This document shows, in pieces, positions 41,941 to 64,000 of a stretch of DNA of 64,000 nt. Location of the stretch: contig CAWIAD010000001.1 in assembly GCA_963833985.1 (NCBI GenBank), forward strand, positions 3,072,001-3,136,000, in the 5' to 3' direction. The DNA comes from an uncultured Planctomycetaceae bacterium (lineage in GTDB: Bacteria > Planctomycetota > Planctomycetia > Isosphaerales > Isosphaeraceae). Position 1 is the stretch's first letter, and each line of letters opens with the position of its first letter. The translations under genes and the position numbers were made by a program. Under the pieces are notes generated by a model. The model worked only from the letters and a program-made list of their open reading frames with translations, made no database searches and was not told the DNA's origin.

Positions 41941-42023
41941 GCGTGGGACAAGACTCCATACTTGTCGTTCTTATCGCTGCCTCATCGGCTCATCAATGGC
42001 AAGCCAGGGACCTTGTCTCACGC
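41941..42023. repeat. Second copy of the REP-like inverted-repeat pair; right arm overlaps the sufSE 3' end
   Basis: GCGTGGGACAAGACTCCATACTTGTC (41941-41966) and degenerate inverse GGCAAGCCAGGGACCTTGTCTCACGC (41998-42023). Confidence 0.7.
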
Positions 42024-43796
42024 AAGGTCAGCCCGGCCGCGAAGCTCCGCAAGCGCTTGACCATCTCGGCCAGACCGTTGCGCCGGCTCATGAGGAGGTT
42101 CGTGGTCAGGCCCAGCCTGGCGAGCAGGCTGTTGAGATCAAATTCGATGATCTGGTCCGCCGGCTGGCCGGAGAAAATGGCCTGGAGCAAAGCGATCAGG
42201 CCGCGGACGATCTCGCTGTCGCTGTCGGCCAGGAACTCCACGATGTCGTTCGAGCCCGGGCGCAAGCGGGGGTGGAGAAAGACGATGCTCTGGCAGCCGC
42301 GCACGCGGTGATCCTCGATTTTCAGCTCCTTCGGCATGGCGGGCAGGCCGCGGCCCAGCTCGATCAGGTACGCGTAACGATCGGACCAGTCGTGCAGGTC
42401 CTCGAACTCGGCGGCGAAGTTCTCAGCGGCCGCCTGGATCGAGGCAGCCGATGCCGCGGGATAGTCCACCGAGTGAGAGTCCGGGCAGGGGGGTGATGCG
42501 GGCCGGAGCGGCACGCGAGCCTGCTCGCCGGCGATACGGCCCAGGCAGTCCGCCAGGGCGTCGACTTCCTCGAGGGTGTTGTACACGGAGAACGAGGCAC
42601 GCACGGTGCCGGCCACGCCCAGGCGGTGCATCAGCGGCTGGCAGCAATGGTGGCCGGTACGGACCGCAATGCCTTCAAGGTCAAGCCGCATGCCCACGTC
42701 GAGAGATGAGAGATGTGAATCCTCGAGCACGAACGACACGGCGCCCGACTCGGTGCGCCGGGCGACCCACGAGGCGCACGCCCGGAATGGCGGAGAGCGC
42801 CCGGACGCAGCGATCAACAAGCTCCGCCTCGTGCTCGGCGATGGCCTGACGGTCCTGCCCCTGGAGCCAGTCCAGCGCCGCGGCCAGGCCGATGGCCCCG
42901 GCGACGTGCGGCGTGCCGGCCTCGAACTTCAGTGGGGCGGGTGCGTACGAGGTCTTCTCGAACGTGACGGAGTCGATCATGTCGCCTCCGCCTTGCCATG
43001 GGGGCATCGCCTCGAGATGGTGCAGCTTGCCGTAAAGGACTCCCATGCCCATAGGCCCAAAGATCTTGTGGCCGGAGAACGCGTAGAAGTCGCAGTTGAG
43101 GTCCTGAACGTCAACGTCCACATGAGCCACTGCCTGGGCGCCGTCCACCAGAACGATCGCACCGTGCTGGTGTGCCCGATCGATGATGCGCTTGACCGGG
43201 TTGACAGTCCCGAGCGCATTGGACACGTGGCTGACGGCCACGATCCTGGTGCGACGCGAAAGCATTTCCTCCAGGGATTCGAGGTCGAGCTCGCCATCGT
43301 CGCTGATCGGCACGACGCGGAGCTTCGCGCCGGTCTGCTCGCAGAGGATCTGCCAGGGGACGATATTGGCGTGGTGCTCCATCCAGGTAATCAGCACCTC
43401 ATCACCTGGCTTCACGGTCTGCCGGCCGAAGCAATGCGCCGCCAGGTTGATGGCTTCGGTGGCGCCGCGGACGAAGACGACTTCCCGGTGAGAGGCGGCA
43501 TTGAGGAAACGGGCGATCGTCGTACGGGCCTGTTCGTACCGCTGCGTCGCCTGGTCGCTCAGCTCGTGCACTCCCCGGTGCACGTTGGCACAGCAGCCCT
43601 CGTAAAAGTCGGTCATCGCATCCAGAACGACCTGCGGCTTCTGGGTTGTGGCGGCGTTGTCCAGGTAGATGAGCGGTCTGTCGTGAACCCGGCGGGCGAG
43701 GATCGGAAACTCGCCACGGATCGCCGCCAGATCCAGTCCGGTGCCCCGGACTGCGGTGCGGCTGACTTCCAGGGCGCCGGGGTCGCTACGGTTCAT
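41993..43796 (-). CDS. sufS: SufS-type cysteine desulfurase fused to SufE; frameshift near 42745
   Basis: YLDNAATTQKP, FSGHK (PLP Lys), FEAGTP and RTGHHCCQP, then in the same frame WSDRYAYLIELG, RVRGCQS, DSDSEIVRGL and SRRNGL (SufE). Confidence 0.88.
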
Positions 43797-43869
43797 CAGG
43801 CATTCCTCGGTGTTCGTTTCGCCATACGATCTGGAGTGATGCGCTCATCCGTTCGACAGTCTCCATTCT

Positions 43870-43885
43870 AGCAGATTCAGCGCCG
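43870..43885 (-). promoter_or_regulatory. Possible sigma54 promoter for sufSE
   Basis: CGGCGCTGAATCTGCT (GG-N10-GC), weaker than consensus. Confidence 0.4.
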
Positions 43886-44001
43886 GGACGCCTGCTCCAC
43901 AGCCAAAAGAGAGAACCGGCACGAATTCCCGCCAGGGAGGAAGACGGGCACTTCCTTCCCGTTCTCGATTTGTCCGATTGGAACCAAATGTCTGCTCGCT
44001 G

Positions 44002-44017
44002 TGTGGTGTTTCCGACA
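44002..44017. promoter_or_regulatory. NifA upstream activator sequence
   Basis: TGT-GGTGTTTCCG-ACA (TGT-N10-ACA). Confidence 0.75.
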
Positions 44018-44093
44018 TGACCTGGGCTGGGAGGCCGCCTGTCCGGGTGCGGAAACCCCGGTGTTCCTGCACTTTTCCTGTAGCCGACCGGTT

Positions 44094-44109
44094 CGGCATC
44101 GGCCTTGCT
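44094..44109 (+). promoter_or_regulatory. sigma54 promoter of nifB
   Basis: CGGCATCGGCCTTGCT (GG-N10-GC). Confidence 0.7.
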
Positions 44110-44175
44110 TTGGCCCGATCGAGCCTCGCTACAGCCAACGGGAACGCGCACCGACCGCCCTGGGAGGGCCATCAC

Positions 44176-45654
44176 TTGAAACTCACGGTCCTTGGACAGG
44201 ACGACAACGCCGCGCAGGGGACAGGCTGCTCGGCCTCCTCGTGCGGCAGCACGGCCGACCAGTTCAACCAGCTTCCCCCGTCCATCCGCAGCCGCGTGTA
44301 CAACCATCCCTGCTATTCCGAGCAGGCCCATCACCACTTCGCGCGGATGCACGTGGCCGTGGCGCCGGCCTGTAATATTCAGTGCCACTACTGCAATCGC
44401 AAGTACGATTGTGCAAACGAGTCGCGTCCCGGCGTCGTCTCCGAAGTGCTGACTCCGGAGCAGGCCGTGAAGAAGACGCTCGCGGTGGCGGCGAAGATTC
44501 CCCAGCTGACCGTGCTGGGCATTGCCGGACCGGGCGACCCGCTGGCCAATCCCAGCCGCACGTTCCCCACGTTCCGGATGCTGTCCCAGCAGGCGCCCGA
44601 TATCAAGCTGTGCGTCTCGACCAACGGCCTGGCGCTGCCTGACTGCGTGGACGAGCTGGCGCGGCATAATATCGAACATGTGACGATCACGATCAACTGC
44701 CTGGACCCGGAAGTCGGCCAGCATATCTATCCCTGGGTCTTCTGGAAGCACAAGCGGCTCCGCGGCCGCGCCGCGGCTGCCATCCTCATCGAGCGGCAGC
44801 AGCAGGGGCTGGAAATGCTCGTGGAGCGCGACATCCTGGTGAAGGTGAATTCGGTAATGATCCCCGGCGTGAACGACCAGCACCTCAAGGAGGTGAGCAG
44901 GACGGTCAAGAGCAAGGGGGCCTTCCTGCACAACGTGATGCCACTGATCGCCGAGGCCGAGCACGGAACGTATTACGGCCTCGCGGGCCAGCGCGGACCG
45001 ACCGCGGCCGAGCTCCAGGCATTGCAGGACCAGTGCGCCGGCGACATGAACATGATGCGGCACTGCCGCCAGTGCCGGGCCGATGCGGTCGGCCTCCTGG
45101 GTGAGGATCGGGGCGCGGAGTTCACGCTCGACAAGATCGATGCCCTCGAGATCGACTACGCGGCCGCCATGGAGACTCGCGCTGCGGTCCACCAGGCGAT
45201 TCGCGCGCAGCTTGGAGCCAGCCTCCCCGCGTCGCCGCCGGCGCTTGCGCAAGTTCCCGGCGCAGCGCGCGCGGTGCTCATGGCGGTCGCCAGCCGGGGC
45301 GGAGGGCTCGTCAACGAGCACTTCGGTCACGCGCGCGAGTTCCTCGTTTACGAGGCTTCGCCCGCGGGCGTCCGGTTCATCGGGCATCGCAAGACTGATC
45401 TGTATTGCGGTGGCGGAGACACGTGCGGCGACGCCGAGTCCACGCTCGCCCAGACCATTCGAGCCCTCGAGGGCTGCGTGGCCGTGCTCTGCTCCAAAGT
45501 CGGCTTTGAACCCTGGGAACACCTGGAGGCCGCCGGCATCACTCCCAATGGGGAGCATGCCCTGGAGCCAATCGAGCAGGCCGTCGCGGCAGTTTACCTG
45601 GCCATGTACCAGGAGGGCCGGCTCATCCAGGCCGCCGGTCACAAGGCCGGTTGA
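44176..45654 (+). CDS. nifB: FeMo-cofactor biosynthesis radical SAM protein with NifX-like domain
   Basis: TTG start after GGGAGG; HPCYS, CNIQCHYC, CANESRPG, AGPGDPLAN, MRHCRQCRADAVG and EHFGHA. Confidence 0.95.
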   Translation: MKLTVLGQDDNAAQGTGCSASSCGSTADQFNQLPPSIRSRVYNHPCYSEQAHHHFARMHVAVAPACNIQCHYCNRKYDCANESRPGVVSEVLTPEQAVKKTLAVAAKIPQLTVLGIAGPGDPLANPSRTFPTFRMLSQQAPDIKLCVSTNGLALPDCVDELARHNIEHVTITINCLDPEVGQHIYPWVFWKHKRLRGRAAAAILIERQQQGLEMLVERDILVKVNSVMIPGVNDQHLKEVSRTVKSKGAFLHNVMPLIAEAEHGTYYGLAGQRGPTAAELQALQDQCAGDMNMMRHCRQCRADAVGLLGEDRGAEFTLDKIDALEIDYAAAMETRAAVHQAIRAQLGASLPASPPALAQVPGAARAVLMAVASRGGGLVNEHFGHAREFLVYEASPAGVRFIGHRKTDLYCGGGDTCGDAESTLAQTIRALEGCVAVLCSKVGFEPWEHLEAAGITPNGEHALEPIEQAVAAVYLAMYQEGRLIQAAGHKAG

Positions 45655-45680
45655 ACGCCAGCGCAGGAAAGGATCGATCC

Positions 45681-45959
45681 ATGGCACTGAAGATCAACGA
45701 CCAGTGTGTGAATTGCTGGGCATGCTTCGACGTGTGCCCCACGCAGTCGATCTCGCCGGGCAAGCAGCACGCCCACTTCTTCATCGACCCGCGCAGCTGC
45801 ACCGAATGCGAGGGATCGTTCCAGGACCCCCAGTGTGCCTCGATCTGTCCGATCGAGGGCGCGATTGTCCGCAAAGGGGTTCCGCTCAATCCTCCCGGCT
45901 CGCTCAGCGGTCTCGACCCGGAGTGGGTCCGCCAGAGACTGAGCGGCCAGCCAAGCTGA
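45681..45959 (+). CDS. fdxN: 2[4Fe-4S] ferredoxin downstream of nifB
   Basis: CVNCWACFDVCP and CTECEG...PQCASICP. Confidence 0.8.
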   Translation: MALKINDQCVNCWACFDVCPTQSISPGKQHAHFFIDPRSCTECEGSFQDPQCASICPIEGAIVRKGVPLNPPGSLSGLDPEWVRQRLSGQPS

Positions 45960-46050: not shown

Positions 46051-46926
46051 TCAGCCGGCCAGCACGGCCTCCGTTTGCGTCCAGGTCGTCCGGTCGTGTG
46101 CGGCGTGGATCAGGTCGGTGATGGTGCACTCGAGGATCTCGATCTGCTTGGACTGGCAATAGCGGCGTTCCTTGGCGGTCGGCTCGGGAATCAGTGCCCA
46201 GCCCGCGGGAGAGTCGGCGTCGACGACGATGTCGGAGAGGATCATCCGCTGCGTGTCGCGTTTCATACGCACGCCGGCGATGAGGTATTGCTTGCCCTGG
46301 CGATGCTGCTTGACGAAGCCCGGCACGGCGAAGCCGCCCATGAGCTCGGTGATGTAGTCGACGAAGTCGGCATCCGAGGCGATATAAGTGGGCTCGGGGT
46401 GGGGAGTGCCCAGGGGCTTGAAGAGAATGGGCAGATCAGGGTTGGCCGAGTCGGGGCCCACCTCGCGGTAGGTCTCGCCGTCATACTCCCAGATGCGGAA
46501 CCGGTAATCCGAGGCCATGATCCGGGCCACGCCCGTCACCAGGGTGTGGCGGCGGTTCGCGTAACGGTGCTGGAGCAGCGCATCGCGATTGGTGTCGACA
46601 ATGTAGGGAAGCCGGAGCGAGCTCAGCCACTCGTGCACCGCGCCTCCGGTCCAGGGAGAGCTGTAGACTCGCGTCAGAAACGATGAGAGGAACCGGCGTC
46701 CCTTCTTGAGCTCGAAGTGCATGGCGGCTCGGGGGAACTCGGTCATCAGCTTGGGGCTGATCGGCCGCCCCTCGGTCATCGCCAGGATGAGCGGCTCGTC
46801 GGCCGCGGGGATCGGTGCGCCCGTCCCGGAGTGGATCACGTCGTCCAGGACCTGCGGGCCGAGGTACGGAATCACCTGGCCGGATCGCAGTCCCGCAAGA
46901 ATATGGTCGAATCGACTGGAAGGCAT
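46051..46926 (-). CDS. nif-associated SIR2-like domain protein
   Basis: VIPYLGP, IVDTNRD, ILFKPLG and ASDADFVD; resembles the SIR2_2-type fold. Confidence 0.7.
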   Translation of the reverse strand: MPSSRFDHILAGLRSGQVIPYLGPQVLDDVIHSGTGAPIPAADEPLILAMTEGRPISPKLMTEFPRAAMHFELKKGRRFLSSFLTRVYSSPWTGGAVHEWLSSLRLPYIVDTNRDALLQHRYANRRHTLVTGVARIMASDYRFRIWEYDGETYREVGPDSANPDLPILFKPLGTPHPEPTYIASDADFVDYITELMGGFAVPGFVKQHRQGKQYLIAGVRMKRDTQRMILSDIVVDADSPAGWALIPEPTAKERRYCQSKQIEILECTITDLIHAAHDRTTWTQTEAVLAG

Positions 46927-47004
46927 ACGTGTTTCCTTTCTCTGGTGTGGTCGTCTGTCTGCCCCAGCTCCGCTGCCGTGGGGAACTTCCTCGTTTCCGC
47001 CTGA

Positions 47005-47020
47005 AGCAAGCGACGTGCCA
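47005..47020 (-). promoter_or_regulatory. sigma54 promoter of the SIR2-like gene
   Basis: TGGCACGTCGCTTGCT, consensus. Confidence 0.8.
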
Positions 47021-47096
47021 GCCGCCGATCCGGCCCGCACAGGCCGCTCAGGGCGGCAACGAGCACGGCTGGCGCCGTGTCGCACAGCCAGCACCG

Positions 47097-47141
47097 CGTC
47101 GGAAACCCGACACAGCACCGCCCAATGTGGCAACTCCCACA
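47097..47141. promoter_or_regulatory. Tandem NifA UAS between divergent promoters
   Basis: CGTCGGAAACCCGACA (one mismatch) and TGTGGCAACTCCCACA (47126-47141). Confidence 0.75.
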
Positions 47142-47229
47142 CAATCCGACCCGCGGCTCACGGGATCATCGAGGCTGCCGGCCTCTATTCCAGGCTGCGC
47201 ACGCTTCCTTCGCGAGATGTATTTCGTGT

Positions 47230-47244
47230 TGGCACGGTCCTTGC
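47230..47244 (+). promoter_or_regulatory. sigma54 promoter of nifH
   Basis: TGGCACGGTCCTTGC. Confidence 0.85.
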
Positions 47245-47320
47245 GAGGTCCACGTCGGTCGCCCACGACGCTAGCTTCAGCAATGGAGCCGATTGACATC
47301 TACATACTCAGGAGACTTGA

Positions 47321-48223
<903 letters not shown>

Positions 48224-48351: not shown

Positions 48352-49803
48352 ATGTCCGTGATGACTCGAGAAGAAACCGAGGCCTTGATTCAAGAGGTGC
48401 TCGAGGTGTACCCGAGCGCCGCCCGCGAGGACCGGGCCAAGCACCTGGCCGCCAACGACCCCGAGCTCGCCCAGTCGAAGAAGTGCATCACCTCGAACAA
48501 GAAATCGCTTCCCGGCATGATGACGATCCGCGGCTGCGCCTACGCCGGCTCGAAAGGCGTCGTCTGGGGACCGATCAAGGACATGATCCACATCTCGCAC
48601 GGTCCTGTCGGCTGCGGCCAGTACTCCCGCGCCGGGCGGCGCAATTACTACATCGGCACGACGGGCGTGAACACGTTCGTCACCATGAACTTCACCTCCG
48701 ATTTTCAGGAGAAGGACATCGTCTTCGGCGGCGACAAGAAGCTCACCGCGCTGATCGGCGAGGTCGAAACCCTCTTCCCGCTCAACAAGGGAATCACGGT
48801 CCAGTCCGAATGCCCGATCGGACTGATTGGCGATGACATCGAGGCGGTTTCCAGGAAGGTCTCGAAGGAGATCGGCAAGCGGGTCGTGCCGGTGCGGTGC
48901 GAGGGCTTCCGGGGCGTTTCACAGTCGCTTGGCCACCACATCGCCAACGACTCGATCCGCGACCACGTCTTCACCGACGGCATCGAGGACCGCGCGACCG
49001 CCTGGCAGCCTTCGGATTACGACGTCTCGATCATTGGCGACTACAACATTGGCGGCGATGCCTGGTCGTCACGCACCTTGCTGGAAGAGATGGGCCTGCG
49101 CGTGGTTGCCCAGTGGTCGGGCGACGGCACGATCGCCGAGCTGGAAAACACGCCCAAGGTCAAGCTCAACCTGCTGCATTGCTATCGCTCCATGAACTAC
49201 ATCTCGCGGCACATGGAGGAGAAGTACGGTATTCCCTGGGTGGAGTACAATTTCTTCGGGCCCACCAAGATCGCCGAGTCGCTGCGGAGCATCGCGCAGC
49301 ACTTCGATGCGTCCATTCAGGAGGGCGCGGAGCGGGTGATCGAGAAGTACCGTCCCGAGTTCGAGGCGGTCGTCGAGAAGTACAAGCCGCGGCTGAAGGG
49401 CAAGCGGGTGATGCTCTTCGTCGGCGGCCTGCGGCCGCGCCACGTCATCGGCGCCTATGAAGACCTGGGCATGGAGGTGGTTGGCACCGGCTACGAATTC
49501 GGCCACAACGACGACTACGACCGCACGCTCAAGGAGATGGGCAACGCCACCCTGCTCTATGACGACGTCACCGGCTACGAGTTCGAGGAGTTCGTCAAGA
49601 AGATCAAGCCTGATCTCATCGGCTCGGGCATCAAGGAGAAGTACATCTTCCAGAAGATGGGCATCCCCTTCCGGCAGATGCACTCGTGGGACTACTCCGG
49701 TCCGTACCACGGCTACGACGGCTTCGCCATCTTCGCCCGCGACATGGACATGACGCTGAACAACCCGTGCTGGAACCAGATCCGGCCGCCCTGGAAGTCA
49801 TGA
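48352..49803 (+). CDS. nifD: Nitrogenase MoFe protein alpha chain
   Basis: RGCAYAG, PVGC, QSECP, GHHIAND, LHCYRSM, GGLRPRH and QMHSWDY. Confidence 0.99.
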
Positions 49804-49870: not shown

Positions 49871-51442
49871 ATGAGCCAGAATGTGGAAGCAATCAAGCCC
49901 TGCTTTCCCCTCTTTCGCGAACAGGAATACAAGGATAGCCTCGCGCGCAAGAAGGAGCTGTACGAGGAAGCTCACGACGCCGGCAAGATCCGCGAGGTCT
50001 TCGAGTGGACCACGACGGCCGAGTACCAGGAGCTCAATTTCAATCGCCAGGCCCTGACCGTGAACCCGGCGAAGGCCTGCCAGCCTCTGGGCGCGGTGCT
50101 GTGTGCCCTGGGGTTCGAGAAAACCCTCCCCTACGTCCATGGCTCGCAAGGCTGCGTCGCCTACTTCCGGACGTATTTCAACCGCCACTTCAAGGAGCCG
50201 ATCTCCTGCGTTTCCGACTCGATGACCGAGGACGCGGCGGTCTTCGGCGGCCAGAAGAACATGTTCGCCGGCCTGGAGAATGCCCGGGCGGTCTACAAGC
50301 CCGACATGATCGCCGTGAGCACGACGTGCATGGCCGAGGTCATCGGCGACGACCTGAACGCGTTCATCAACAACGCCAGGAAGAACGGGCACGTCCCCGA
50401 GGAGTATCCCGTGCCGTTCGCGCACACCCCGAGCTTCGTGGGCAGCCACACCACGGGCTGGGACAACATGATGGAGGGGATCCTTCGCTTCTTCACGCTC
50501 AACCACATGGAAGGCAAGCGGGCCGGCACCAACGCCAAGATCAATATCGTTCCCGGCTTCGAGACCTACCTGGGCAACTTCCGCGTGATCAAGCGGATGC
50601 TGCGCGAGATGGACGTTCCGTTCACGTTCCTGTCCGATCCGGAAGAGGTGCTCGACACGCCGGCCGACGGCCAGTTCCGGATGTACGCCGGAGGCACCAC
50701 GCAGGAGGAGGTGAAGGACGCTCCCAATTCGTCCGCCACGTTCCTGCTCCAGCCCTGGCAGCTCGACAAGACGGCGAAGTACGTTGAGAACACATGGGGC
50801 CACGAGATCCCGATCACGCACATCCCCATGGGGCTGGAGTGGACCGACCAGTTCCTCATGAAGGTCTCCGAGGTGACCGGCAAGCCCATCCCGGCATCGC
50901 TCGAGAAGGAGCGCGGCCGGCTCGTCGACATGATGACCGACTCGCACACCTGGCTGCACGGCAAGACCTTCGCGCTCTGGGGCGACCCGGACTTCGTGAT
51001 GGGGCTGTGCAAGTTCCTCACGGAGGTGGGAGCCGAGCCCACTCACGTCATCTGCCACAACGGCAACAAGCGGTGGCGCAAGGAACTCATGGGGCTGCTC
51101 GCCGAGTCGCCCTACGGCAAGAAGGCCGAGGTGCACATCGGCCGCGACCTCTGGCACCTGCGCTCGCTGGTCTTCACCGACAAGCCTGACTTCATGATCG
51201 GCAACTCGTATGGCAAGTTCATCCAGCGCGACACGATCACCAAGGGACCCGAGTTCGAGGTCCCGCTGATCCGGCTCGGCTTCCCGATCTTCGACCGCCA
51301 TCACCTGCACCGCGACACGACGCTTGGCTACGAGGGCGCGATGCACATGCTGCGGACGGTCGTCAACGCCGTTCTTGAAAAGCTCGACCATGACACCCGC
51401 GGCATGGGTACGACCGACTACAACTACGACCTGATCCGCTGA
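49871..51442 (+). CDS. nifK: Nitrogenase MoFe protein beta chain
   Basis: NPAKACQPLG, HGSQGC, TTCMAEVIGDD, GFPIFDRH and NYDLIR; long group I N-terminus. Confidence 0.99.
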   Translation: MSQNVEAIKPCFPLFREQEYKDSLARKKELYEEAHDAGKIREVFEWTTTAEYQELNFNRQALTVNPAKACQPLGAVLCALGFEKTLPYVHGSQGCVAYFRTYFNRHFKEPISCVSDSMTEDAAVFGGQKNMFAGLENARAVYKPDMIAVSTTCMAEVIGDDLNAFINNARKNGHVPEEYPVPFAHTPSFVGSHTTGWDNMMEGILRFFTLNHMEGKRAGTNAKINIVPGFETYLGNFRVIKRMLREMDVPFTFLSDPEEVLDTPADGQFRMYAGGTTQEEVKDAPNSSATFLLQPWQLDKTAKYVENTWGHEIPITHIPMGLEWTDQFLMKVSEVTGKPIPASLEKERGRLVDMMTDSHTWLHGKTFALWGDPDFVMGLCKFLTEVGAEPTHVICHNGNKRWRKELMGLLAESPYGKKAEVHIGRDLWHLRSLVFTDKPDFMIGNSYGKFIQRDTITKGPEFEVPLIRLGFPIFDRHHLHRDTTLGYEGAMHMLRTVVNAVLEKLDHDTRGMGTTDYNYDLIR

Positions 51443-51489: not shown

Positions 51490-51702
51490 ATGCCCAAGGT
51501 GATGCTCCGCCGGGCGGCGTCCGGCAGCCTCGTCTTCTACGTCGCCAAGAAAGACCTGGAAGACGAGGTGGCCTCGCTCGAGTTCGACCAGCCGGACAAA
51601 TGGGGCGGCGAACTGGTGCTGCGCGACGGATCGCGCTATTTCGTCGAGCCGTTCGACGCCCCGCCCCGGCTCCCCCTGACCGTGCAGGCGCAAAAGCTTT
51701 GA
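51490..51702 (+). CDS. nifT: NifT/FixU
   Basis: MPKVML..YVAKKDLE..WGG..LPLTV. Confidence 0.9.
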   Translation: MPKVMLRRAASGSLVFYVAKKDLEDEVASLEFDQPDKWGGELVLRDGSRYFVEPFDAPPRLPLTVQAQKL

Positions 51703-53990: not shown

Positions 53991-55385
53991 ATGACCCGCA
54001 CCAGGATCATCCGCCGCAGCAAGCCGATGTCGGTCAGCCCGCTCAAGAGCAGCGCCACCATTGGCGCCGCTCTCGCGTTCATGGGCGTCGCCCGGGCAAT
54101 TCCGCTGATGCACGGAGCGCAGGGGTGTACGGCCTTTGGCAAGGTCTTCTTCGTGCGTCACTTTCGCGAGCCGATCCCGCTCCAGACCACCGCGATGGAC
54201 CAGGTGAGTTCAGTGATGGGTGCCGATGAGAACATCATCGAAGCTCTGGTCGCGGTCTGCGGCAAGCAGAAGCCCGACCTGGTGGGCCTGCCGACGACGG
54301 GGCTGGCCGAGACCCAGGGCACCGACATTCACGGGGCGGTCCGCCAGTTCCGCAACCGCTACCCTGAGTTTGCCGCGATCACCGTGGTGCCCGTGAACAC
54401 GCCGGATTACTCGGGATGCTTCGAGTCCGGTTACGCGCAGGCGGTGCGAGCGCTCATCGATACGGTCGTGCCCGAGACGCGAGCCGTCCGGCCCGCAGTA
54501 CCAAGACGCAACGGACGCGTTGCCGTGCTGGCCGGCTCGCTGCTCTCGGTGGGCGACGTCGAGGCGATCAAGGAGCTGATCGAGCTGTTCGGCTTGCAGC
54601 CGGTGGTCCTACCCGACCTGGCCGACTCGCTGGATGGACACCTGACTGACGAGGACTTCAATCCCTTGACGTACGGCGGCCTCTCCGTCGCCGAGCTGAA
54701 CGCACTGGGAACGGCCGACGCGACGATCGTCGTGGGCCGTTCGCTGAACGCGGCCGCCGACCTGCTGCATGAACGCACGGGGGTTCCGGATTACCGTTTC
54801 GACCATTTGCTCGGGCTCGAGGCCAGTGACGCCTTGGTCTACGCGCTGGCGGCGATCAGCGGCCGGGACGTGCCCGCGCACATCGAGCGGCAACGCGCCC
54901 AGCTTCAGGACGCCATGGTCGACACCCACTTCACGATCGGCCAGCGGCGGTACGCCATTGCGGCCGATCCAGATTTGATGCTCGGTTTCAGCCAGTTCCT
55001 CACCCAGATGGGCGGCGAAGTGGTTGCCGCCGTCGCTCCCGCGCACGGGCCTGCGCTGGAGTCGGTGCCGGCCGCCGAGGTGGCCGTGGGCGATCTGGAG
55101 GATCTCGAAAAGCAAGCGAGGGCGGCCTCCGCCGAGCTGGTGATCGGCAACTCGCACGCGGTGGAATCGGCGCGCCGACTGGGCCTGCCGATCTTCCGTG
55201 CGGGGTTTCCCCAGTTCGATCTACTGGGCGGTTACCAGCACACCTGCATCGGCTACCGGGGCGCCCGGCAGTTGCTGTTCGACCTGGCGAATCTGCTCCA
55301 GGAGCAAAGTCACACAGCCATTCCAGTCTATCGCTCGATCTATTCTCAGAAACAGGACCGGCCGGTCCAGGAGCGGGAACGATGA
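53991..55385 (+). CDS. nifN: FeMo-cofactor scaffold NifN
   Basis: [29 protein letters not shown] and [11 protein letters not shown]. Confidence 0.97.
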
Positions 55386-55870
55386 CAGGGTCGATCCCCG
55401 TGCAGCTGAAGATTTGCGATGACCGTGAAACGCCCTGCGAGCCGGCGCTGCTGGTGGCCTTCGCCAGCAGCGACATGACCGCCGTGGATCAGCATTTTGG
55501 GTCCGCGACGCGGTTCGTGGTTTATCGCGTCAGTGCACGCGAAGGGACGCTGCTCCATCTGACGCAGTTCGAGGAGACGAGCCAGGACGGCAATGAGTCG
55601 AAGCTGGCCGCCAAGATTGCGGCCCTCAGCGGCTGCTCGGCAGTTCTCTGCGTGGCCGTGGGTGCCTCGGCCCTGCGACAGCTCGTGGCCGCCGGCATCC
55701 AGCCCATCAAGGTGGAGCCTGGAAGCACGATCCGCGAGGCCGTGGCGCTTCTGGTCCAGGAGATCCAACGAGCTTCCACGCCGTGGGTGGTCAAGGGGCT
55801 GCGGCGTGCGGGTGGAACCCAGGAGTTCAGCCGGTTTGACGACATGGAACAGGGTGGCTGGAAAGGCTGA
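55382..55870 (+). CDS. nifX: NifX
   Basis: [28 protein letters not shown] overlap with nifN. Confidence 0.9.
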
Positions 55871-55989: not shown

Positions 55990-56448
55990 ATGTCCATGAG
56001 TACCACGACCGACCTGGCCCAACACGCGATCATTCGACAGATCGTCAAGCAGGTCCGGGCCAACGACACCTACGGTCAGTATGACCGGAGTACGACTGAA
56101 GAGCTGATCGCCCCGTTCATCGTCACAAAGGAGCAAAAGCACGAGATCCCCATCGTGGGTGACCCCGACGAGCAGACGATCGAGCGCGTGCGGGAGTATT
56201 ACAATGCCATCTCGTCGCTGGTCGAGGAAAGGACGGGGTTGATGGCGATCCCGATGATGAGCCTGACACATGAGGGGTTCGGCCGCGCGCTCATCACCGT
56301 GGGCAAGCTCGTTGTCTATGACCGGACGCTGCGCAACGTCCATCGCTACGGTTACAGCTCGGTCGAGCACCTGGAATCGGAAGCCGACAAGGCGCTCACC
56401 GGCATCCTGGGACTCATCGAGCGCTACCGAGAAGTGGCCGAGGACTGA
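55990..56448 (+). CDS. NifX-associated protein (DUF269)
   Basis: RANDTYG, IPIVGDPD, HEGFGR and LRNVHRYGY. Confidence 0.85.
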   Translation: MSMSTTTDLAQHAIIRQIVKQVRANDTYGQYDRSTTEELIAPFIVTKEQKHEIPIVGDPDEQTIERVREYYNAISSLVEERTGLMAIPMMSLTHEGFGRALITVGKLVVYDRTLRNVHRYGYSSVEHLESEADKALTGILGLIERYREVAED

Positions 56449-56467: not shown

Positions 56468-56782
56468 ATGAGCACCAGCACGCTTTCGTATGTCGGCCGC
56501 ACGCGGGGCGGGGCCGAGTGGTACCCCAGATACGTCATGGCCCTGGACCAGTCGCGCTGCATCGGCTGCGGCCGGTGCTTCAAGTCGTGCTCGCGATCGG
56601 TTTTCCAGCTCGTCGCGCGGGAGACCGACGAGGATGACGACTGTGACGAGACCTCCAAGGTCATGCAGATTGCCGATGCATTCGACTGCATCGGCTGCGA
56701 GGCCTGCGGCAAGGTCTGCCCCAAGTCATGCCTCACGCACGAGTCAGTCGAGCAGTCTGCCGAGGCAGTTGCTGCAAGATGA
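56468..56782 (+). CDS. fdxB: nif-specific ferredoxin III
   Basis: TRGG..W.P, CIGCGRCFKSC and CIGCEACGKVCPK. Confidence 0.85.
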   Translation: MSTSTLSYVGRTRGGAEWYPRYVMALDQSRCIGCGRCFKSCSRSVFQLVARETDEDDDCDETSKVMQIADAFDCIGCEACGKVCPKSCLTHESVEQSAEAVAAR

Positions 56783-56870: not shown

Positions 56871-56916
56871 TGTCGGATCTTCGACATGGACCGGTAAAAA
56901 TGTGAACTTCGCGACA
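56871..56916. promoter_or_regulatory. Two perfect NifA UAS upstream of nifU
   Basis: TGTCGGATCTTCGACA (56871-56886) and TGTGAACTTCGCGACA (56901-56916). Confidence 0.8.
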
Positions 56917-56980
56917 CCCACCGCGCCGCGCAAGCGTTGCGCGGCCGCATCCGGGACGGTGTGAAATTGAAGTCAGGGAT

Positions 56981-56996
56981 TGGCATCCTATTTGTT
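56981..56996 (+). promoter_or_regulatory. sigma54 promoter of the nifU operon (GT instead of GC at -12)
   Basis: TGGCATCCTATTTGTT. Confidence 0.65.
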
Positions 56997-57116: not shown

Positions 57117-58031
57117 ATGTGGGAGTACTCCGAGAAAGTTCAGGACCATTTCTTCCACCCGCGGAACGCGGGCGCGCTGGTTGACGCCAATGCGGTGGGC
57201 GAGATCGGATCGATCGCCTGCGGCGACGCACTGCGGCTGATGCTCCGGGTGGACCCTGAGTCCGAACGGATCCTGGACGCGCGGTTCCAGACCTTCGGTT
57301 GCGGTTCCGCGATTGCGTCGTCCTCGGCGCTCACGGAGATCATCAAGGGCAAGTCGCTCGACGACGCGCTTCAGGTCTCGAACCAGGATATTGCCGACTA
57401 TCTCGACGGTCTGCCTCCCGAGAAGATGCACTGTTCCGTCATGGGGCGGGAAGCTCTCCAGGCCGCGGTCGCCAACTACCGGGGAGTGGCGCCGGCCGAA
57501 GATCACGAGGAAGGGGCACTGGTGTGCCACTGCTTCGGCATTCATGCCGGGCTGATCGAGGAGGTCGCGCAGAGCAACCGGCTGGCGACGGTGGAGGACA
57601 TCACGAACTACACGAAGGCGGGAGGCGGCTGCACTTCCTGCCACGAGAAGATCGAGGAAATGCTGGACCAGATCAAGGCGAAGCGGAGCCAGCGGCTGGA
57701 CCCGGTGGAGTCCGAGTGTCCGCCGCTACCGCGGGCACCGCGGTGGTCGGAGCTGACCATGCCCCAGCGGGTGCGCCGGGTCGAGTCCGTCATCGAGCGC
57801 ATCCGTCCCCAGTTGCGGGCGGACCACGGGGACATCGAACTCGTGGAGATCGATGGCAAGGCCGTCTTCGTCTCGATGCTCGGTGCCTGCAAGGGATGCG
57901 CGCAGGAGGCGGCCACGCTCGGCGGATTGCAGCAGAAGCTCATCGAGGAATTCGGCGAGCTGGTGACCGTACGTCCGGCCCATGCAATGGCTCTGGCCGC
58001 GGCCAGCCGGGGAGGCAATCACCATGGCTGA
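57117..58031 (+). CDS. nifU: Fe-S scaffold NifU
   Basis: [41 protein letters not shown] and GACKGC. Confidence 0.95.
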
Positions 58032-59239
58032 TATCTATATGGACAACAACGCCACGACCAGGGTTGATCCCGCGGTCGTGGAGGCGATGCTCCCCTTCTT
58101 CACCGAGCAGTTCGGCAATCCCTCGTCGATGCACAGCTTCGGTGACCAGGTGGGCAAGGCGATCAAGAAGGCGCGGGGACAGGTGGCCGGGCTCCTCGGC
58201 GCGGCCCACGATTCCGAGATCATCTTCACCTCGTGCGGGACGGAGTCCGACTCGACGGCCATCCTCTCGGCCCTCAAGTCGCAGCCGGACCGCTGCGAGC
58301 TGATCACCACGGCCGTGGAGCACCCCGCCATTCTCAATCTCTGCGAGCACCTCGAGAAGCAGCTCGGCGAGGATGGCTACGTCGTGCACCGGCTGCACGT
58401 CGATTCCAAGGGCCGGCTTGATCTCCGCGAGTATCGCCGGCTGCTCGGGCCGCAGACGGCCGTCGTCTCGGTGATGTGGGCCAACAACGAGACCGGGACG
58501 ATCTTCCCGGTCGAGGAGATGGCCGAGATGGCGAAGTCCTGCGGCGCCCAGTTCCATACCGATGCGGTCCAGGCCGTGGGCAAGGTTCCCATCAACCTCA
58601 AAGAATCCACGATCGACATGCTGTCGCTCTCCGGCCACAAGCTGCATGCGCCCAAGGGGGTGGGCGTACTCTACCTGCGCCGCGGAACCCGGTTTCGACC
58701 GCTGCTGCGCGGAGGCCACCAGGAGCGGGGGCGGCGCGGGGACGGAGAACACCGCGTCGATCGTGGCCCTGGGCCAGGCGGCCGAGCTGGCATCGGAGCA
58801 CCTCGTCCTCGAGAACACCACCGTCAAGGCAATGCGCGATCGCCTGGAACAAGCCATCATCGAGCAGGTGCCGAACTGCTTCGTCACGGGCGATCGCTCC
58901 AGCCGCCTGCCCAATACCTCGAACATTGCGTTCGAGTACATCGAAGGCGAGAGCATCCTGCTCATGCTGAACCGCCTGGGCATCGCAGCGTCGAGCGGTT
59001 CGGCGTGCACATCGGGATCGCTGGAGCCCTCGCACGTGATGCGCGCCATGGGCATTCCCTACACCGCTGCGCATGGAACCATCCGGTTCTCGCTCTCGCG
59101 TTACAACACCATGGCCGAGGTCGAGCGTGTGATCCAGGCCGTGCCGGGGATCGTCCAGCAACTGCGCTCGCTCTCGCCTTACTGGAACGGTGACTGCCCG
59201 GTCGCCGCCGAGGCCGCGTTCGCTCCGAAGTACGCTTGA
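58024..59239 (+). CDS. nifS: Cysteine desulfurase NifS; frameshift near 58735
   Basis: [35 protein letters not shown] and [16 protein letters not shown]. Confidence 0.93.
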
Positions 59240-59271
59240 CCCATCGTCGATTATTCATCCTCGAGGCATTC

Positions 59272-60433
59272 ATGGCTCTCTCGAAGACGATCGTGCTCGA
59301 CGACACGACGCTGCGCGACGGCGAACAATCGGCGGGCGTGGCGTTCACGGTCCAGGAGAAGATGGCGATTGCCCAGGACCTCGATCGCGCCGGCGTGCCG
59401 GAGCTCGAGGTTGGCATCCCCAGCATGGGCGACGAGGAGCGCGAAAGCATCCTGGCCGTCGCCTCGAGCGGGCTGAATGCCAGGCTTCTGGTATGGTGCC
59501 GGATGCGGCAGGACGACCTGGACGCCTCGGCCGGACTGGGCGCCCACATGGTCGACCTGTCGATTCCGGTCTCCGACCTCCAGATCCGGCACAAGCTGCG
59601 GCGCGACCGGCCGGCCGTGCTGAGGACGATCCGCGAGCTTGTGCCGCAAGCCGTCGCGGCCGGCATGGAAGTCTGCGTCGGCGGCGAGGACGCGTCACGC
59701 GCCAGCATCACCTTCCTGCTCCGCGTCATCGAGGCCGCCGAGTGCGCCGGCGCACGACGGTTCCGGTTCGCCGACACGGTGGGTATCCTCGACCCCTTCC
59801 GGACCCACCGCATCTTTCGCAGGCTGCGACGATCCACCTCCATGGAGCTGGAGATGCACGCGCACGACGACCTGGGCATGGCCACGGCGAACAGCCTGGC
59901 AGCCGCACGCGCCGGCGCGACTCACGTCAACACGACCGTCAATGGCCTGGGCGAGCGCGCGGGAAACGCGCCACTGGAGGAAGTTGCCGTTGCTCTGGAG
60001 ATGCTTCACGGCGTGCAGACCGGGGTGGATCTCCGGCGCCTGCCTGCCGTATCCACCCGGGTCGCGCAAGCGTCCGGCCGGCAGGTCGGCTGGCAGAAGA
60101 GCCTGGTGGGTGAGGGGGTCTTCACCCATGAGGCCGGCATCCACGTCGACGGGCTGCTCAAGAACCGGCTCAATTACCAGGGGGTCGACCCCGCGCTCCT
60201 GGGCCGCGAACACCGTCTTGTTCTGGGCAAGCATTCCGGCTCGCATGCCGTGGAGCGGGCCCTGGTGGCCCTGGGGCTGGACGCCGACCCTGGCGAGGTC
60301 GCCGAGATTCTCCGGCAACTCCGGTCGTTCGCCGAAGCTTCCAAGCGGTCCCCCACCGAGCACGACCTGCGACTCCTGGTACGCCAGACTCGTCACTCAT
60401 CGACCCCTGCCCAGCGGAGGACTCGTCCCGTGA
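59272..60433 (+). CDS. nifV: Homocitrate synthase (reads in frame into nifW as assembled)
   Basis: DTTLRDGEQ, RFADTVG, HAHDDLG, GLGERAGNA, HEAGIH and GKHSG. Confidence 0.93.
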
Positions 60434-60774
60434 TCAGCGACCCGATGCAGGAAGATCTTCAGGAGCTCGGCAGCGCCGAGGAGTTCCTGAACTACTTCGA
60501 AGTGCCGTTTGACGAGCGCATCGTACAAGTCAACCGCTTGCACATCCTTCAGAGATTTCACGATTATCTCGCGCGGGCCACGGCGGAGCGACCCCTTGCG
60601 GATGTCGTAAGCCGTGAGAGCTACAAGGCACTGCTGATGCGTGCCTACCAGGATTTCGTCGACTCCGACGCGATTACTCAGCGGGTCTTCAAGGTGTTCC
60701 ATGACGTCCGCGGCGAGAGCTTCGTGGCCGCGGAAACCATCGGCCTGCAACCAGGGAAGCCCACCCAGGAGTGA
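60430..60774 (+). CDS. nifW: NifW
   Basis: GGAGG then GTG 60430; SAEEFLNYF, VNRLHILQRF, AYQDF and VFKVF. Confidence 0.9.
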   Translation: MISDPMQEDLQELGSAEEFLNYFEVPFDERIVQVNRLHILQRFHDYLARATAERPLADVVSRESYKALLMRAYQDFVDSDAITQRVFKVFHDVRGESFVAAETIGLQPGKPTQE

Positions 60775-60778
60775 CGCC

Positions 60779-61246
60779 GTGATTCCAGCATTTGATTATG
60801 GGGACATGGTGCGCGTCATCCGCACGATCCGCAACGACGGAACCTACCCCGATATGGAGACAGGCGCCCAGCTCGTGCGGGCCGGCAGCGTGGGGCACGT
60901 CCGCAACGTGGGGACCTTTCTTCAGGAGCAGATCATCTACGCCGTGCACTTCCTGGGAGAGGACCGGATCGTCGGTTGCCGCGAGGAAGAGCTGGTCTCC
61001 ATCGACGCGCCCTGGACCACGACCCGGTTCCTCTTCCGCGATTGCGTCGTGGCGCGCATCCCTCTGACCGTCGGCGGGCAAGTGGTCGTTGCCCAGGGTT
61101 CGGCGGGCGAGGTGGTCCAGCGCCTGGGTGACGGACCACAGGGACCAAGCTACCATGTCGGTTTCGGCAACCGCGTCTTTCAGGTACCGGAGTCGGCTCT
61201 GGACGAGGCTCCGGTCTGCGACCTGCCGGAAGATCCCGGCGCATGA
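60779..61246 (+). CDS. nifZ: NifZ
   Basis: IRNDGTYP, GTFLQEQIIYAVHF and VGCREEEL. Confidence 0.92.
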   Translation: MIPAFDYGDMVRVIRTIRNDGTYPDMETGAQLVRAGSVGHVRNVGTFLQEQIIYAVHFLGEDRIVGCREEELVSIDAPWTTTRFLFRDCVVARIPLTVGGQVVVAQGSAGEVVQRLGDGPQGPSYHVGFGNRVFQVPESALDEAPVCDLPEDPGA

Positions 61247-61280
61247 GACGACCCCAGGCGCGGACACGTGGAGCGACGCC

Positions 61281-62084
61281 ATGCTTCCCGAGCTTTCGGA
61301 CGACGAGCGGACACGCTACGACAGGCAGATCGGGCCGGGCGTTCTCACCGAGCAAGGACAGCAGCGCCTGAAGGCCGCGACGGCCCTGGTAACGCGGGTG
61401 GGCGGCGTCGGCGGGCCAGCGGCGCTGGCCCTGGCCATGGCGGGCCTTGGCAAGCTCATCATCGCGCACGGCGGCCCGCTGGAATCGCCCGACCTGAACC
61501 GGCAGGTGCTGGGCTCGGAAGCTGGCGTGGGGCAGCCCCGCGCCTGGCAATTCGCGGAGAACATCCGCAAGCTCTGCCGGTTCGTCGAAATTGACGTCAT
61601 CCCGCACGAACCCGACGAGGACGAGGCCGTCGAGCTGGCACGACGCGCGCAGATCGTGCTCAGTTGCCCCGCGGACTTCACGCACCGGCTCCGGCTCAAC
61701 CGCGCGGCCCACCGCGCCGGTGTGCCATTCATCGACGCCGCGCAGTGGGGCATGGCCGGTTCGCTTTTCGTCAGTGATGGAGCGACGACGCCGTGCCTGG
61801 AGTGCCTCTACCCGGAAGAGCCCCCGTTCGAGCCTCGGTTTCCGGTCGTGGGAGCGATCGCCGGGGCCATCGGCAACCTGGCGGCCCTCGAAGCCGTGAA
61901 GATTCTCAGCGGCACCGGCAAGCCAATCTGGGGACAGATGTTGCTCATCGACGGGTTCAGCGGCGAGACGCACAGGATCTGCCTGCAACGGCGGCCCACG
62001 TGCCCGGTGTGCGCTGGCTATCCTCCAGCGACCGGCGAGAAGATCAGGACCTCGTCCCCTTCACGGAGCGTCCTTTCGCGGTGA
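61281..62084 (+). CDS. hesA: HesA/MoeB/ThiF-family E1-like adenylyltransferase
   Basis: RYDRQI, GQQRLK, VGGVGG, DLNRQ, PCLECL and CPVC. Confidence 0.88.
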   Translation: MLPELSDDERTRYDRQIGPGVLTEQGQQRLKAATALVTRVGGVGGPAALALAMAGLGKLIIAHGGPLESPDLNRQVLGSEAGVGQPRAWQFAENIRKLCRFVEIDVIPHEPDEDEAVELARRAQIVLSCPADFTHRLRLNRAAHRAGVPFIDAAQWGMAGSLFVSDGATTPCLECLYPEEPPFEPRFPVVGAIAGAIGNLAALEAVKILSGTGKPIWGQMLLIDGFSGETHRICLQRRPTCPVCAGYPPATGEKIRTSSPSRSVLSR

Positions 62085-62269
62085 TCGGCGACCGTGCCGA
62101 GATGCTCGCCGCAGACTGCGACCATGGTGCCAGGGCCCAGCGCGCACTGCCAGGCGCGAACCGCGGACAGCGCCTCGTCGAGCGATGCCCCCTCGGGGAG
62201 TTCCAGGACCTCGGGAATTGACCCAGACTCTGGATACTGCCTCCCCGTAATCTTCACTCGTACCTTCAC
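62018..62269 (-). CDS. MoaD/ThiS-like ubiquitin-fold sulfur carrier
   Basis: GGGAGG then GTG; LELPEGASL..LREGDEVLIFSPVAGG with C-terminal di-Gly. Confidence 0.8.
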   Translation of the reverse strand: MKVRVKITGRQYPESGSIPEVLELPEGASLDEALSAVRAWQCALGPGTMVAVCGEHLGTVADHRERTLREGDEVLIFSPVAGG

Positions 62270-62348
62270 TCGCCTTGCCTCCCAAGAATCTCTACGCGCT
62301 CTAGGCGGTTTTCTGACCGGTTGCAAGCAGCTTCTGAGGTCTTGGAAA

Positions 62349-62412
62349 GGGGGGCAGACATTCCTGTCTGCCAGGGCAGGCCGGCTCCGGCAGGCAGGAA
62401 TGCCTGCCCCCC
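62349..62412. repeat. REP-like 24-bp inverted repeat (second family)
   Basis: GGGGGGCAGACATTCCTGTCTGCC ... GGCAGGCAGGAATGCCTGCCCCCC. Confidence 0.75.
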
Positions 62413-62484
62413 TCAGTCTCAATCTGCGTTCCAAGTGAAAACCGCTCTAGACCTCGACAAGTCGCTCGCAGTGCATCGGCAGAT

Positions 62485-62653
62485 CGCTCGCGCATGGAGC
62501 GTTTCTGCTCCATTTGTGTGCAGAATGTGTGATCCAGGAAAGGCCTTTTTGTCGCAACTGTGGGATCTTGACAGGTCCCGCGGGCTAAAGCGAAGTCACC
62601 ATGCAGTTTACAAGCCGAGCTTCAACGGCCGCGAGGTTGGTGCGAGATTTGCA
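62485..62653 (+). promoter_or_regulatory. Candidate NtrC-type sites and sigma54 promoter of nifA
   Basis: TGCTCCATTTGTGTGCA (62506-62522), a weaker site at 62485-62501, and TGGTGCGAGATTTGCA (62638-62653). Confidence 0.5.
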
Positions 62654-62907
62654 CTTGTGAGACTGATCCTCGATCGCAGCGATGCCGGACGAGCGGATTC
62701 CATCCACGATTGACGATCGCCAGCGGACGTCGTTGGTCAACGCACAAATGAATCGTCATCTTCTCGATGGCGATGCACGGTTGCAAGCCGTCGAAGCGAT
62801 TCCTTGCATCGGACGGTGGAAAGCTGACATCGGATGGGGATGGTCCCGCGGTCAAAAGCCGCGTGGATCCAGAGTTCCAGGTCCGTTGAAGCTCCCGGAG
62901 GGAAAAG

Positions 62908-64000
62908 GTGGAGCCGCTACCCTTGGCCTGCCCGGCGACTGATTGTGCATCCTGCCCGATCACGATTGAACGCGACATGTTCTTCAGCGTCAGCCAGATC
63001 CTGGCTCACTCGCTGGATCTGCGCCGCACGCTTTCCGATGTGCTTCAAGAGCTGGAGAACCGGGTCAATCTCACACGGGGCATCGTCACCCTGCTGGACG
63101 CGGAGAGTGGCGACCTGATCCTGGAGGCGATGATCGGCCCCGATGGAACGATTTTCAAGCCGGCCGACATCCGCTACCGGAGCGGTGAAGGGATTCTCGG
63201 TCAGATCCTCGCCGAGGGCCAGACCATCGTCGTGAGCCGGATCGCCGACGAGCCGAGGTTCATTGGCCGCCTGGGGATCTACGATCCCGAGCTACCATTC
63301 ATCGCCGTACCGATCCGGCTCGGCACGCGGATCGTAGGAGTGCTCGCGGCGCAGCCGCAACCATCGTCGGACGTCGACCTCAGGGACCGGGCACGCGCCC
63401 TGGAGATGGTCGCCAACCTGGTCGGTCAGGTGATCCGACTTTCGTGGAACATGGCCGAGGAGCGCAAGCACCTGGTCAGCGAGCGTGATCGTCTCTTGCA
63501 GGAAGTTCGCGGCCAGTACGGCTTCGACAATATCATCGGCCGCTCCGCGCTCATGCGGCGAGTCTTCGAGCAGATCCGCGCGGTCGCCAAGTGGACGACG
63601 ACCGTGCTCATTCGCGGAGAGTCCGGCACGGGGAAGGAGTTGGTCGCCAACTCCATCCACTACAATTCCCAGCGGGCCGACAAGCCGTTCATTCGCCTCA
63701 ACTGCGCTGCACTGTCGGACCAGCTTCTCGAATCCGAGTTATTCGGTCACGAGAAGGGGGCGTTCACCGGCGCGGGCGATCATCGCCTGGGGCGTTTTGA
63801 GCAGGCCGACGGCGGCACGCTTTTCCTGGACGAGATCGGCGAAATCTCCTCCTCGTTCCAGGCCAAGCTGCTGCGCGTCTTGCAGGAAGGGGAGTTCGAG
63901 CGGGTCGGCAGCTCCCAGACCCGCAACGTCGACATCCGGATTATCGCCGCCACCAACCGCAATCTCGAAGAAGACGTGCAATCCGGCAAGTTCCGAGAGG
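62908..64000 (+). CDS. nifA: nif-specific sigma54 activator NifA (GAF plus AAA+), truncated by the window
   Basis: Not in the ORF track (no stop in window). GGAGG then GTG 62908; [40 protein letters not shown] and [18 protein letters not shown]. Confidence 0.93.

Follow-up and report, generated by a model that had tools for sequence, protein, structure and literature searches.

The window analyzed here is a stretch of 64,000 nucleotides (GenBank assembly GCA_963833985.1, contig CAWIAD010000001.1, positions 3,072,001 to 3,136,000; G000:C1:3072001-3136000 in our numbering, G000 being the source genome) from an uncultured bacterium of the Isosphaeraceae, and it carries a molybdenum (Mo) nitrogenase (nif) gene cluster. 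We found that this cluster is a real, old, transferred group I system of a published kind, and that it belongs to a genus with three nitrogenase types, two of which alternate at one site between lutC and gltA. According to the explanation that fits best as a whole, to which we give a probability of roughly 0.68, the transferred group I system would have coexisted with a group II module at lutC-gltA, of which only the sufS-sufE tail would remain in G000.

The group I cluster spans positions 44176 to 64481 in window coordinates, in the order nifB-fdxN, a pnfA-like gene, nifHDKTY-ENX, nifUSVWZ, hesA and nifA. NifB, NifH, NifD, NifK, NifT, NifE, NifN, the NifX-associated protein, NifU and NifV scored above the curated NCBIfam cut-offs; NifX, NifY, NifW and the window-truncated NifA stayed under theirs, yet each had its own model as best match. 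The minimal Mo-nitrogenase set (nifH, D, K, E, N and B) is present with all six genes full length and above cut-off. An original prediction, made from the sequence alone, had placed the cluster at 41993 to 64000 and described intact ligand motifs, which is borne out: of 14 ligand and motif strings looked for in NifH, NifD and NifK (P-cluster, iron-molybdenum cofactor [FeMo-co] and Fe-protein), none was missing, with NifD aligned to solved structures for ligand assessment and with residue numbering and labels that we assume. NifD scored 847 bits with the nifD model versus 290 with VnfD and 264 with AnfD, and the gap of 67 nucleotides (nt) between nifD and nifK holds no delta subunit gene. The NifD of 483 amino acids (aa) without the group II insertion, the long NifK of 523 aa and the branching with Proteobacteria all agree with group I. 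Every nif gene named in that prediction (nifHDKENB, T, Y, X, U, S, V, W, Z and A) was confirmed with NCBIfam and Pfam, but the segment from 41993 to 43796 encodes a minus-strand SufS-SufE protein that is not part of group I, and fdxN, a SIR2-fold gene, ferredoxin III and hesA/moeB had been overlooked. The features are as follows.

38988-41938, plus strand: lutABC-like lactate oxidation genes, the left host flank, common to nif-bearing and nif-less congeners (NCBIfam); lutB is frameshifted near 40285
41940-41966, plus strand: short hairpin repeat with 11 genome copies, another of which lies at 20850-20876
41993-43796, minus strand: SufS-SufE fusion gene with a 1-nt frameshift near 42745 (NCBIfam/Pfam); a single 608-aa open reading frame in G011
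44002-44017, plus strand: NifA upstream activator sequence (UAS; TGT-N10-ACA motif) upstream of nifB, kept in G002 and G010
44094-44108, plus strand: sigma54 promoter of nifB (motif)
44176-45654, plus strand: nifB, probable TTG start placed by alignment (TIGR01290, 652 bits)
45681-45959, plus strand: fdxN-type 2[4Fe-4S] ferredoxin gene (profile match and comparison of proteobacterial nif loci)
46051-46926, minus strand: SIR2-fold, PnfA-like gene divergent from nifH (PF13289)
47006-47020, for the minus-strand gene: exact sigma54 site of the pnfA-like gene (motif)
47126-47141, plus strand: NifA UAS between the pnfA-like gene and nifH (motif)
47230-47244, plus strand: exact sigma54 promoter of nifH (motif)
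47324-48223, plus strand: nifH (TIGR01287, 463 bits)
48352-49803, plus strand: nifD (TIGR01282)
49871-51442, plus strand: nifK (TIGR01286, 888 bits)
51490-51702, plus strand: nifT (NCBIfam)
51731-52471, plus strand: nifY/nafY-like gene (NifX-domain match; same place after nifT in proteobacterial loci)
52566-53978, plus strand: nifE (TIGR01283, 701 bits)
53991-55385, plus strand: nifN (TIGR01285, 595 bits)
55382-55870, plus strand: nifX (NCBIfam best match)
55996-56448, plus strand: gene for the NifX-associated protein (TIGR02935)
56468-56752, plus strand: nif-specific ferredoxin III gene (TIGR02936, above cut-off)
56871-56995, plus strand: two UAS sites and a degenerate sigma54 site upstream of nifU (motif)
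57117-58031, plus strand: nifU (TIGR02000, 442 bits)
58024-59239, plus strand: nifS, broken by a 2-nt gap near 58735 (NCBIfam)
59272-60774, plus strand: nifV and nifW in a single open frame, internal ATG at 60445 (NCBIfam)
60779-61246, plus strand: nifZ (PF04319)
61281-62084, plus strand: hesA/moeB-like adenylyltransferase gene (NCBIfam)
62304-62449, no strand assigned: palindromic host repeat of 146 nt resembling a miniature inverted-repeat transposable element, with terminal inverted repeats, 46 copies
62977-64000, plus strand: nifA, ending at 64481 outside the window, helix-turn-helix (HTH) in a shifted frame (NCBIfam); gltA follows tail to tail

Homologues of the SIR2-fold gene adjoin nif genes in 23 of 78 proteobacterial loci. 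We liken it to pnfA, described in P. stutzeri (Yan et al., PMC2820453, in the sections consulted), by its size (PnfA is about 32 kDa), its position divergent from nifH and its own sigma54 site, and not by sequence.

The predicted sigma54 promoters and NifA sites stand by position and conservation at the nif spacers, but not by number, since the window-wide counts were no higher than chance (6 sigma54 sites with 1 mismatch versus 4.1 expected; 5 UAS matches versus 5.4). Two exact sigma54 sites lie within the spacer 46927-47323 between the pnfA-like gene and nifH, with an expectation of 0.06 per 20 kb, and the core of the nifH site is unchanged in all six planctomycete clusters aligned. Four of the five UAS matches sit in three nif spacers, and the nifB promoter is retained, together with its UAS, in G002 and G010. 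The presence of rpoN, proposed as a check, was established above cut-off in G000; together with a NifA of GAF-AAA-HTH architecture and the conserved -24/-12 and UAS elements, this completes the components of a NifA/sigma54 regulon. Beside nifA we found no nifL-sized gene in the window, the rest of the genome not having been searched for nifL.

On these grounds G000 carries a canonical group I Mo-nitrogenase system, predicted to reduce N2. NifA at the UAS sites would activate the sigma54 promoters of nifB, the pnfA-like gene, nifH and nifU; NifUS, NifB, NifEN, NifX and NifV would assemble FeMo-co, and NifH would reduce NifDK. Electrons would most likely pass from pyruvate:ferredoxin oxidoreductase (PFOR) through the two cluster ferredoxins to NifH, and a bd oxidase may help hold oxygen low; genes for PFOR, cydA (bd oxidase) and modA are present in G000.

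The G000 assembly comprises 10.16 Mb in two contigs (96.3% complete, 3.9% contaminated), and its markers identify the host as an Aquisphaera-related member of the Isosphaeraceae. RpoB is 92% identical to that of the Aquisphaera insulae JC669 genome (locus L047), and the three identical 16S copies match two planctomycete probe sites, in the form in which we presume these probes to read, with 0 mismatches. The host is a planctomycete, as had been supposed, and not a proteobacterium. RpoB and 16S sit on contig C2 and the nif window on C1; the two contigs are tied by lut-gltA synteny with a nearly closed congener, a 4-mer correlation of 0.9995 and shared repeats. The planctomycete-like flank genes of the original prediction were both recovered, as a Ser/Thr kinase-TPR gene (25062-28493) and a PF06439 gene (29042-30529), PF06439 being what we take to be DUF1080.

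The NifHDK phylogeny, with references picked by closeness and including no cyanobacteria, Azotobacter or Pseudomonas, joined G000, G002, two named Isosphaeraceae and G038, which belongs to another family of the same class, in one clade (FastTree 0.998; ultrafast bootstrap [UFBoot] 95) nested in a gamma/betaproteobacterial clade (UFBoot 100). G003 and Thiomargarita, each with one subunit, were left out of this tree, and the long branch of G010 stems from frameshifted pieces. Among the best 80 of at least 588 NifK relatives, the top two were Isosphaeraceae records (84% identity) and the other 78 were gamma/betaproteobacteria and two "delta" metagenome-assembled genomes (MAGs), at 74 to 80%. Thus the proposed resemblance to Azotobacter and Gammaproteobacteria is correct as to the gamma/beta group I type, but Azotobacter itself is not among these best 80. 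The trees support the arrival of the group I cluster in planctomycetes long ago from a gamma/betaproteobacterial source. Rather than having been transferred directly into G000, the cluster belongs to a group I clade of planctomycetes that also includes another family. At fourfold sites, G000 and G002 differ by 0.36 to 0.61 in nif genes and by 0.37 to 0.60 in the flanks and rpoB, so the cluster is old but not datable; dating by synonymous sites was abandoned on account of saturation. The cross-phylum transfer proposed originally, old and ameliorated, agrees with this divergence, with the Isosphaeraceae host and gamma/beta-type NifHDK, and with the host-like composition described below. Tenderia with a gammaproteobacterial MAG (0.81) and a "Deltaproteobacteria" MAG (UFBoot 66) were candidates for the exact donor, and neither was settled on. 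As separate observations, two "Deltaproteobacteria" MAGs (L089, L125) have gamma-type group I clusters with a pnfA-like gene, possibly further cross-phylum transfers, and G038 (C5:1622215-1653132, L020-L022) has a rearranged cluster of the same clade, with RnfC elsewhere in its genome.

Gamma/betaproteobacterial clusters (Marinobacterium, Thiobacillaceae, Methylococcales, Chromatiales and, in the parts of PMC2820453 seen, the P. stutzeri A1501 island) have nifHDKTY followed by ENX, as in G000, and likewise a pnfA-like gene divergent from nifH with sigma54 and UAS sites. NifK of these proteobacteria is 74 to 80% identical to that of G000, and an upstream nifB-fdxN as in G000 occurs in 3 of the 78 proteobacterial loci. 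Unlike those clusters, that of G000 is compact (20 kb), has nifV and nifW in one frame and is accompanied by neither NifM nor RnfC above cut-off; there was also no NifQ match in G000 (0 of 5 genomes passed, in a search that gave no positive control signal).

The lutC-gltA site could be inspected in 12 of the 14 genomes of the genus, 8 of the 14 having nifH and nifB. It holds the group I cluster in G000, G002 and G010; a group II cluster in G011, where both flanks are seen, and in G006 and G003, where only the gltA side is seen; it is empty in G013, G004, G012 and G008 and rearranged in G009 and G007. Group I lies at another place in G013. Over the family, nifD matches occurred in 10 of 121 genomes (five group I, four long group II NifD and one AnfD), and in a sample of the phylum in 15 of 401, all 13 besides G000 and G038 being group II-like. 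The group II order at the site is gltA, nifA, H, D, K, E, N, B, 2Fe-2S, fdx, V and sufS-sufE, and its NifD is 57% identical to that of Nitratidesulfovibrio and 38% to that of G000. It resembles clusters of Nitratidesulfovibrio, Clostridium and other Planctomycetota in its long NifD and branches there, but differs in that nifD follows nifH without intervening P-II genes, that it carries a NifA-type activator of its own and that it ends in nifV-sufS-sufE. Its best NifK matches, at 67 to 68%, include Bacillota, Bacteroidota and Syntrophobacteraceae. Although NifD of 13 other Planctomycetota joins it (0.988), that tree had only two non-planctomycete group II references, and we make no claim that group II is native to planctomycetes.

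In its tree, the SufS-SufE fusion of the window falls together with the nif-linked copies from G011, G006 and G008 (support 1.0), each located downstream of a group II nifV, and its position and orientation are those of the group II tail, which recurs in G092, a genome of another genus. By these sequence relationships the window sufS-sufE is the leftover tail of a group II module. Across the Isosphaeraceae, SufS-SufE fusions (L194-L210) are mostly distant from nif genes.

Traces of both systems were found in G008. On its contig C279 (L225), group I nifA, hesA, nifZ, nifW and a nifV reduced to its 3' half are followed by a gltA relic, a group II nifA and the first part of group II nifH; on contig C253 (L214), the group II tail with sufS-sufE precedes the promoter and 5' half of a group I nifB. 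The two contigs would form one locus. The group I pieces are 72 to 88% identical to the window genes and group with G000/G002 (0.999). The group II module of G008 is bounded by the gltA relic and by an 18-mer behind sufS-sufE that otherwise occurs only behind lutC of G008, so this module came from the lutC-gltA site. A third type is encoded on contig C42 of the same genome (L030:5937-13575), an Fe-only nitrogenase with anfH, D, G, K, anfO and an anfA-like activator, near integrase- and transposase-like reading frames. G008 has three NifA-type activators in all, and its group I relics flank the group II module. A planctomycete of another class (G333:C1:938807-943135, L188) has an AnfD-like gene, 82% identical to that of G008, besides a group II nifD.

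We therefore propose the following history. The group I cluster would have coexisted in the genus with a group II module located between lutC and gltA; in the G000 lineage, group I now occupies this site and group II would have been reduced to sufS-sufE, the congeners having kept the other system or neither. That the ancestor held both Mo systems and its descendants lost one or the other seems fairly probable. The odds are slightly better than even that this ancestral pair was sorted reciprocally at shared sites, each displacing the other by lineage, with one lineage also holding the Fe-only system. A tandem ancestor (lutC, group II, group I, gltA) could give rise to G000, G002/G010, G011 and G009 by a single deletion each, and no such tandem arrangement was seen among the genomes inspected at the site.

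Several observations weigh against the explanation as a whole. All trees (G001, with 282 aa, was left out of the species tree) set G000 outside the clade of G002/G010, G011/G006/G003 and G009: it is the sister of that clade in the protein and gltA trees (0.989 and 0.90) and branches deeper, weakly, in the rpoB nucleotide tree. Because this clade holds both group I and group II genomes, a single simple replacement does not fit, and a tandem state or recombination is needed. SufS-SufE fusions are not exclusive to nif, as they occur in 16 of the 121 family genomes, 10 of these 16 without a nifD match. The candidate for a group II nifV relic ahead of sufS, a collinear 69-nt match, lacked significance: scores as high came from 24 of 500 shuffles and from 195 of 500 random stretches. 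Group II nifDKE was not found in G008, and its group II nifH and nifB differ from those of G011 at 0.12 of fourfold sites versus 0.37 to 0.64 for housekeeping genes, a difference that demonstrates a recent exchange of the group II core among these congeners. The best NifM match of G000 reached 54 bits versus a cut-off of 168 (0 of 5 genomes passed), out of keeping with a gammaproteobacterial-type system, and RnfC was not found above cut-off in G000. Finally, frameshifts interrupt nifS, nifA, modA, PFOR and cydA in the assembly.

The exchange just mentioned fits the alternative that the two systems never coexisted for long and that congeners traded whole nif modules at lutC-gltA through homologous recombination, sufS-sufE being a swap patch. 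The four or more site states among the inspected genomes and the location of group I at another place in G013 would also suit it. Yet the gltA and lutABC flank trees match the rpoB grouping, and G000-type flanks were not seen in G002; in G000, G002 and G008 the group I genes have diverged like housekeeping genes, as have the edges of the group II module (nifA, sufS-sufE), with fourfold sites near saturation, and G008 physically contains both systems. We consider swapping unlikely.

The frameshifts bear on whether the cluster still works. Relative to G002, the gap of nifS (2 nt, near 58735) lies inside the window and that of nifA (1 nt, near 64374) beyond it; similar gaps of 1 to 2 nt occur in lutB, gltA (twice) and sufS, and modA, PFOR and cydA are split elsewhere in G000. 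Such widespread gaps suggest long-read error, which probably explains those of nifS and nifA. It is very improbable that the cluster is real but decaying, with true frameshift mutations and loss of N2 fixation: the two broken genes, the repeat element upstream of nifA and the decay of such clusters in G008 would fit, but the gaps are of the same type throughout these genes, nifHDKENB are intact, and conservation extends to the NifA HTH and to the two halves of nifS. The single nifV-nifW frame may reflect stop loss or an assembly error. An in-frame stop separates the two genes in G013 and G089 and a change of frame in G002 and G038, and we dropped the idea of a novel NifV-NifW fusion.

There is little to recommend a direct entry of group I into an empty site in the G000 lineage, with sufS-sufE as an unrelated neighbor. 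The four empty sites among congeners, the predominance of SufS-SufE fusions without nif and the nonsignificant nifV relic are compatible with such an entry, but the position, orientation and tree placement of sufS-sufE fit the group II tail, and the closest Nif relatives among the matches listed are planctomycetes, not proteobacteria.

The junctions of the nif block are not chimeric, judging from relatives: the group I cluster recurs in G002 with lutC and gltA again on either side, and G010 shares the lut-side junction before its contig stops in nifN. The original prediction had seen no compositional break, and none appeared. The 4-mer distance of the nif region from the genome mean was 0.96, with 23% of 507 windows of 20 kb equally far, versus 1.6 to 7.9 for six proteobacterial nif loci on the same scale; G+C content at third codon positions of nif genes (0.83 to 0.91) was like that of the flanks, and all nine 4-kb composition bins were host-like. 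The repeats that the original prediction had noticed at and within the cluster correspond to the hairpin at 41940-41966 and the 146-nt element at 62304-62449. The latter has 17 copies on C1 and 29 on C2, and was not found in the matching spacer of G002 or G013. Contig C1 has a foreign end, about 140 kb (G000:C1:3372000-3511121; L212, L213) of foreign composition in seven consecutive windows with Bradyrhizobiaceae-like ccr and etf genes, the Ccr protein and one from Bradyrhizobiaceae falling in one cluster at 90%. From about 3.372 Mb onward, 236 kb from nifA, C1 has probably been misjoined with an alphaproteobacterial piece. FixAB was rejected as electron donor, the sole electron transfer flavoprotein pair of G000 lying in this end. 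Even with C1 probably chimeric in that part, it is scarcely conceivable that the nif block is a misassembled proteobacterial piece, given that independent genomes have the same junctions (a synteny that largely refutes it), that the region is host-like in every bin and holds a host repeat with 0 of 46 copies in the foreign end, and that its NifHDK are not alphaproteobacterial.

Transfer of group I nitrogenase to the Isosphaeraceae is already published. In the sections seen, Camargo et al. (PMC9938248) describe four MAGs of this family whose group I nifHDK branch with Gammaproteobacteria and show synteny to P. stutzeri, which is read as horizontal transfer; G000 shares with these MAGs the family, the branching, the synteny with proteobacterial clusters and the reading as transfer. 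The same sections report group I only, and mention no group II or Fe-only system, no alternation at one site and no cultured carrier. Zhang et al. (PMC12628686) demonstrated N2 fixation in Crateriforma sp. HD03, a planctomycete that has nifHDKBEN and nifA like G000 but is marine and of a different genus; their survey section names only Crateriforma and Novipirellula. HD03 is the sole pure-culture proof for the phylum located in our literature search. That search turned up no paper on one-site alternation, on nif genes of A. insulae or on an Isosphaeraceae nitrogenase of the group II or Fe-only type (subscription journals and bioRxiv supplements were not covered). The new elements are the three congeners with an unrelated group II cluster at the site and the window sufS-sufE as its tail; G000 adds a near-complete genome to the published case, and the comparison of congeners matters more.

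Group I and group II nitrogenases are usually seen as lineage traits, and in this genus they alternate at one site. Depending on the species, nifH from this genus would be classed with Gammaproteobacteria, with anaerobic cluster III or as anfH, and surveys of soil and peat based on nifH are misled by this. The cultured type strain A. insulae JC669 carries nifB through nifW of the group I cluster, and thus diazotrophy of the Isosphaeraceae is directly testable. If the reciprocal sorting is true, the genus would be a natural experiment on nitrogenase type versus oxygen and molybdenum regime, with a cultured member for tests.

Some minor observations concern the rest of the window and the congeners. 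The only Rfam match in the window was a group II intron domain (D1-D4-4, 24760-24900). The intron extends over 21082-24900, and its reverse transcriptase is interrupted by about 2 kb between 26-nt inverted repeats (21682-21707 and 23675-23700). In congener G005 (C38:6365-14111, L150), two full-length rpoB matches adjoin each other, through duplication or an assembly artifact. At 998-1164 of the window lies a low-complexity coding region with three repeats of a 51-nt period.

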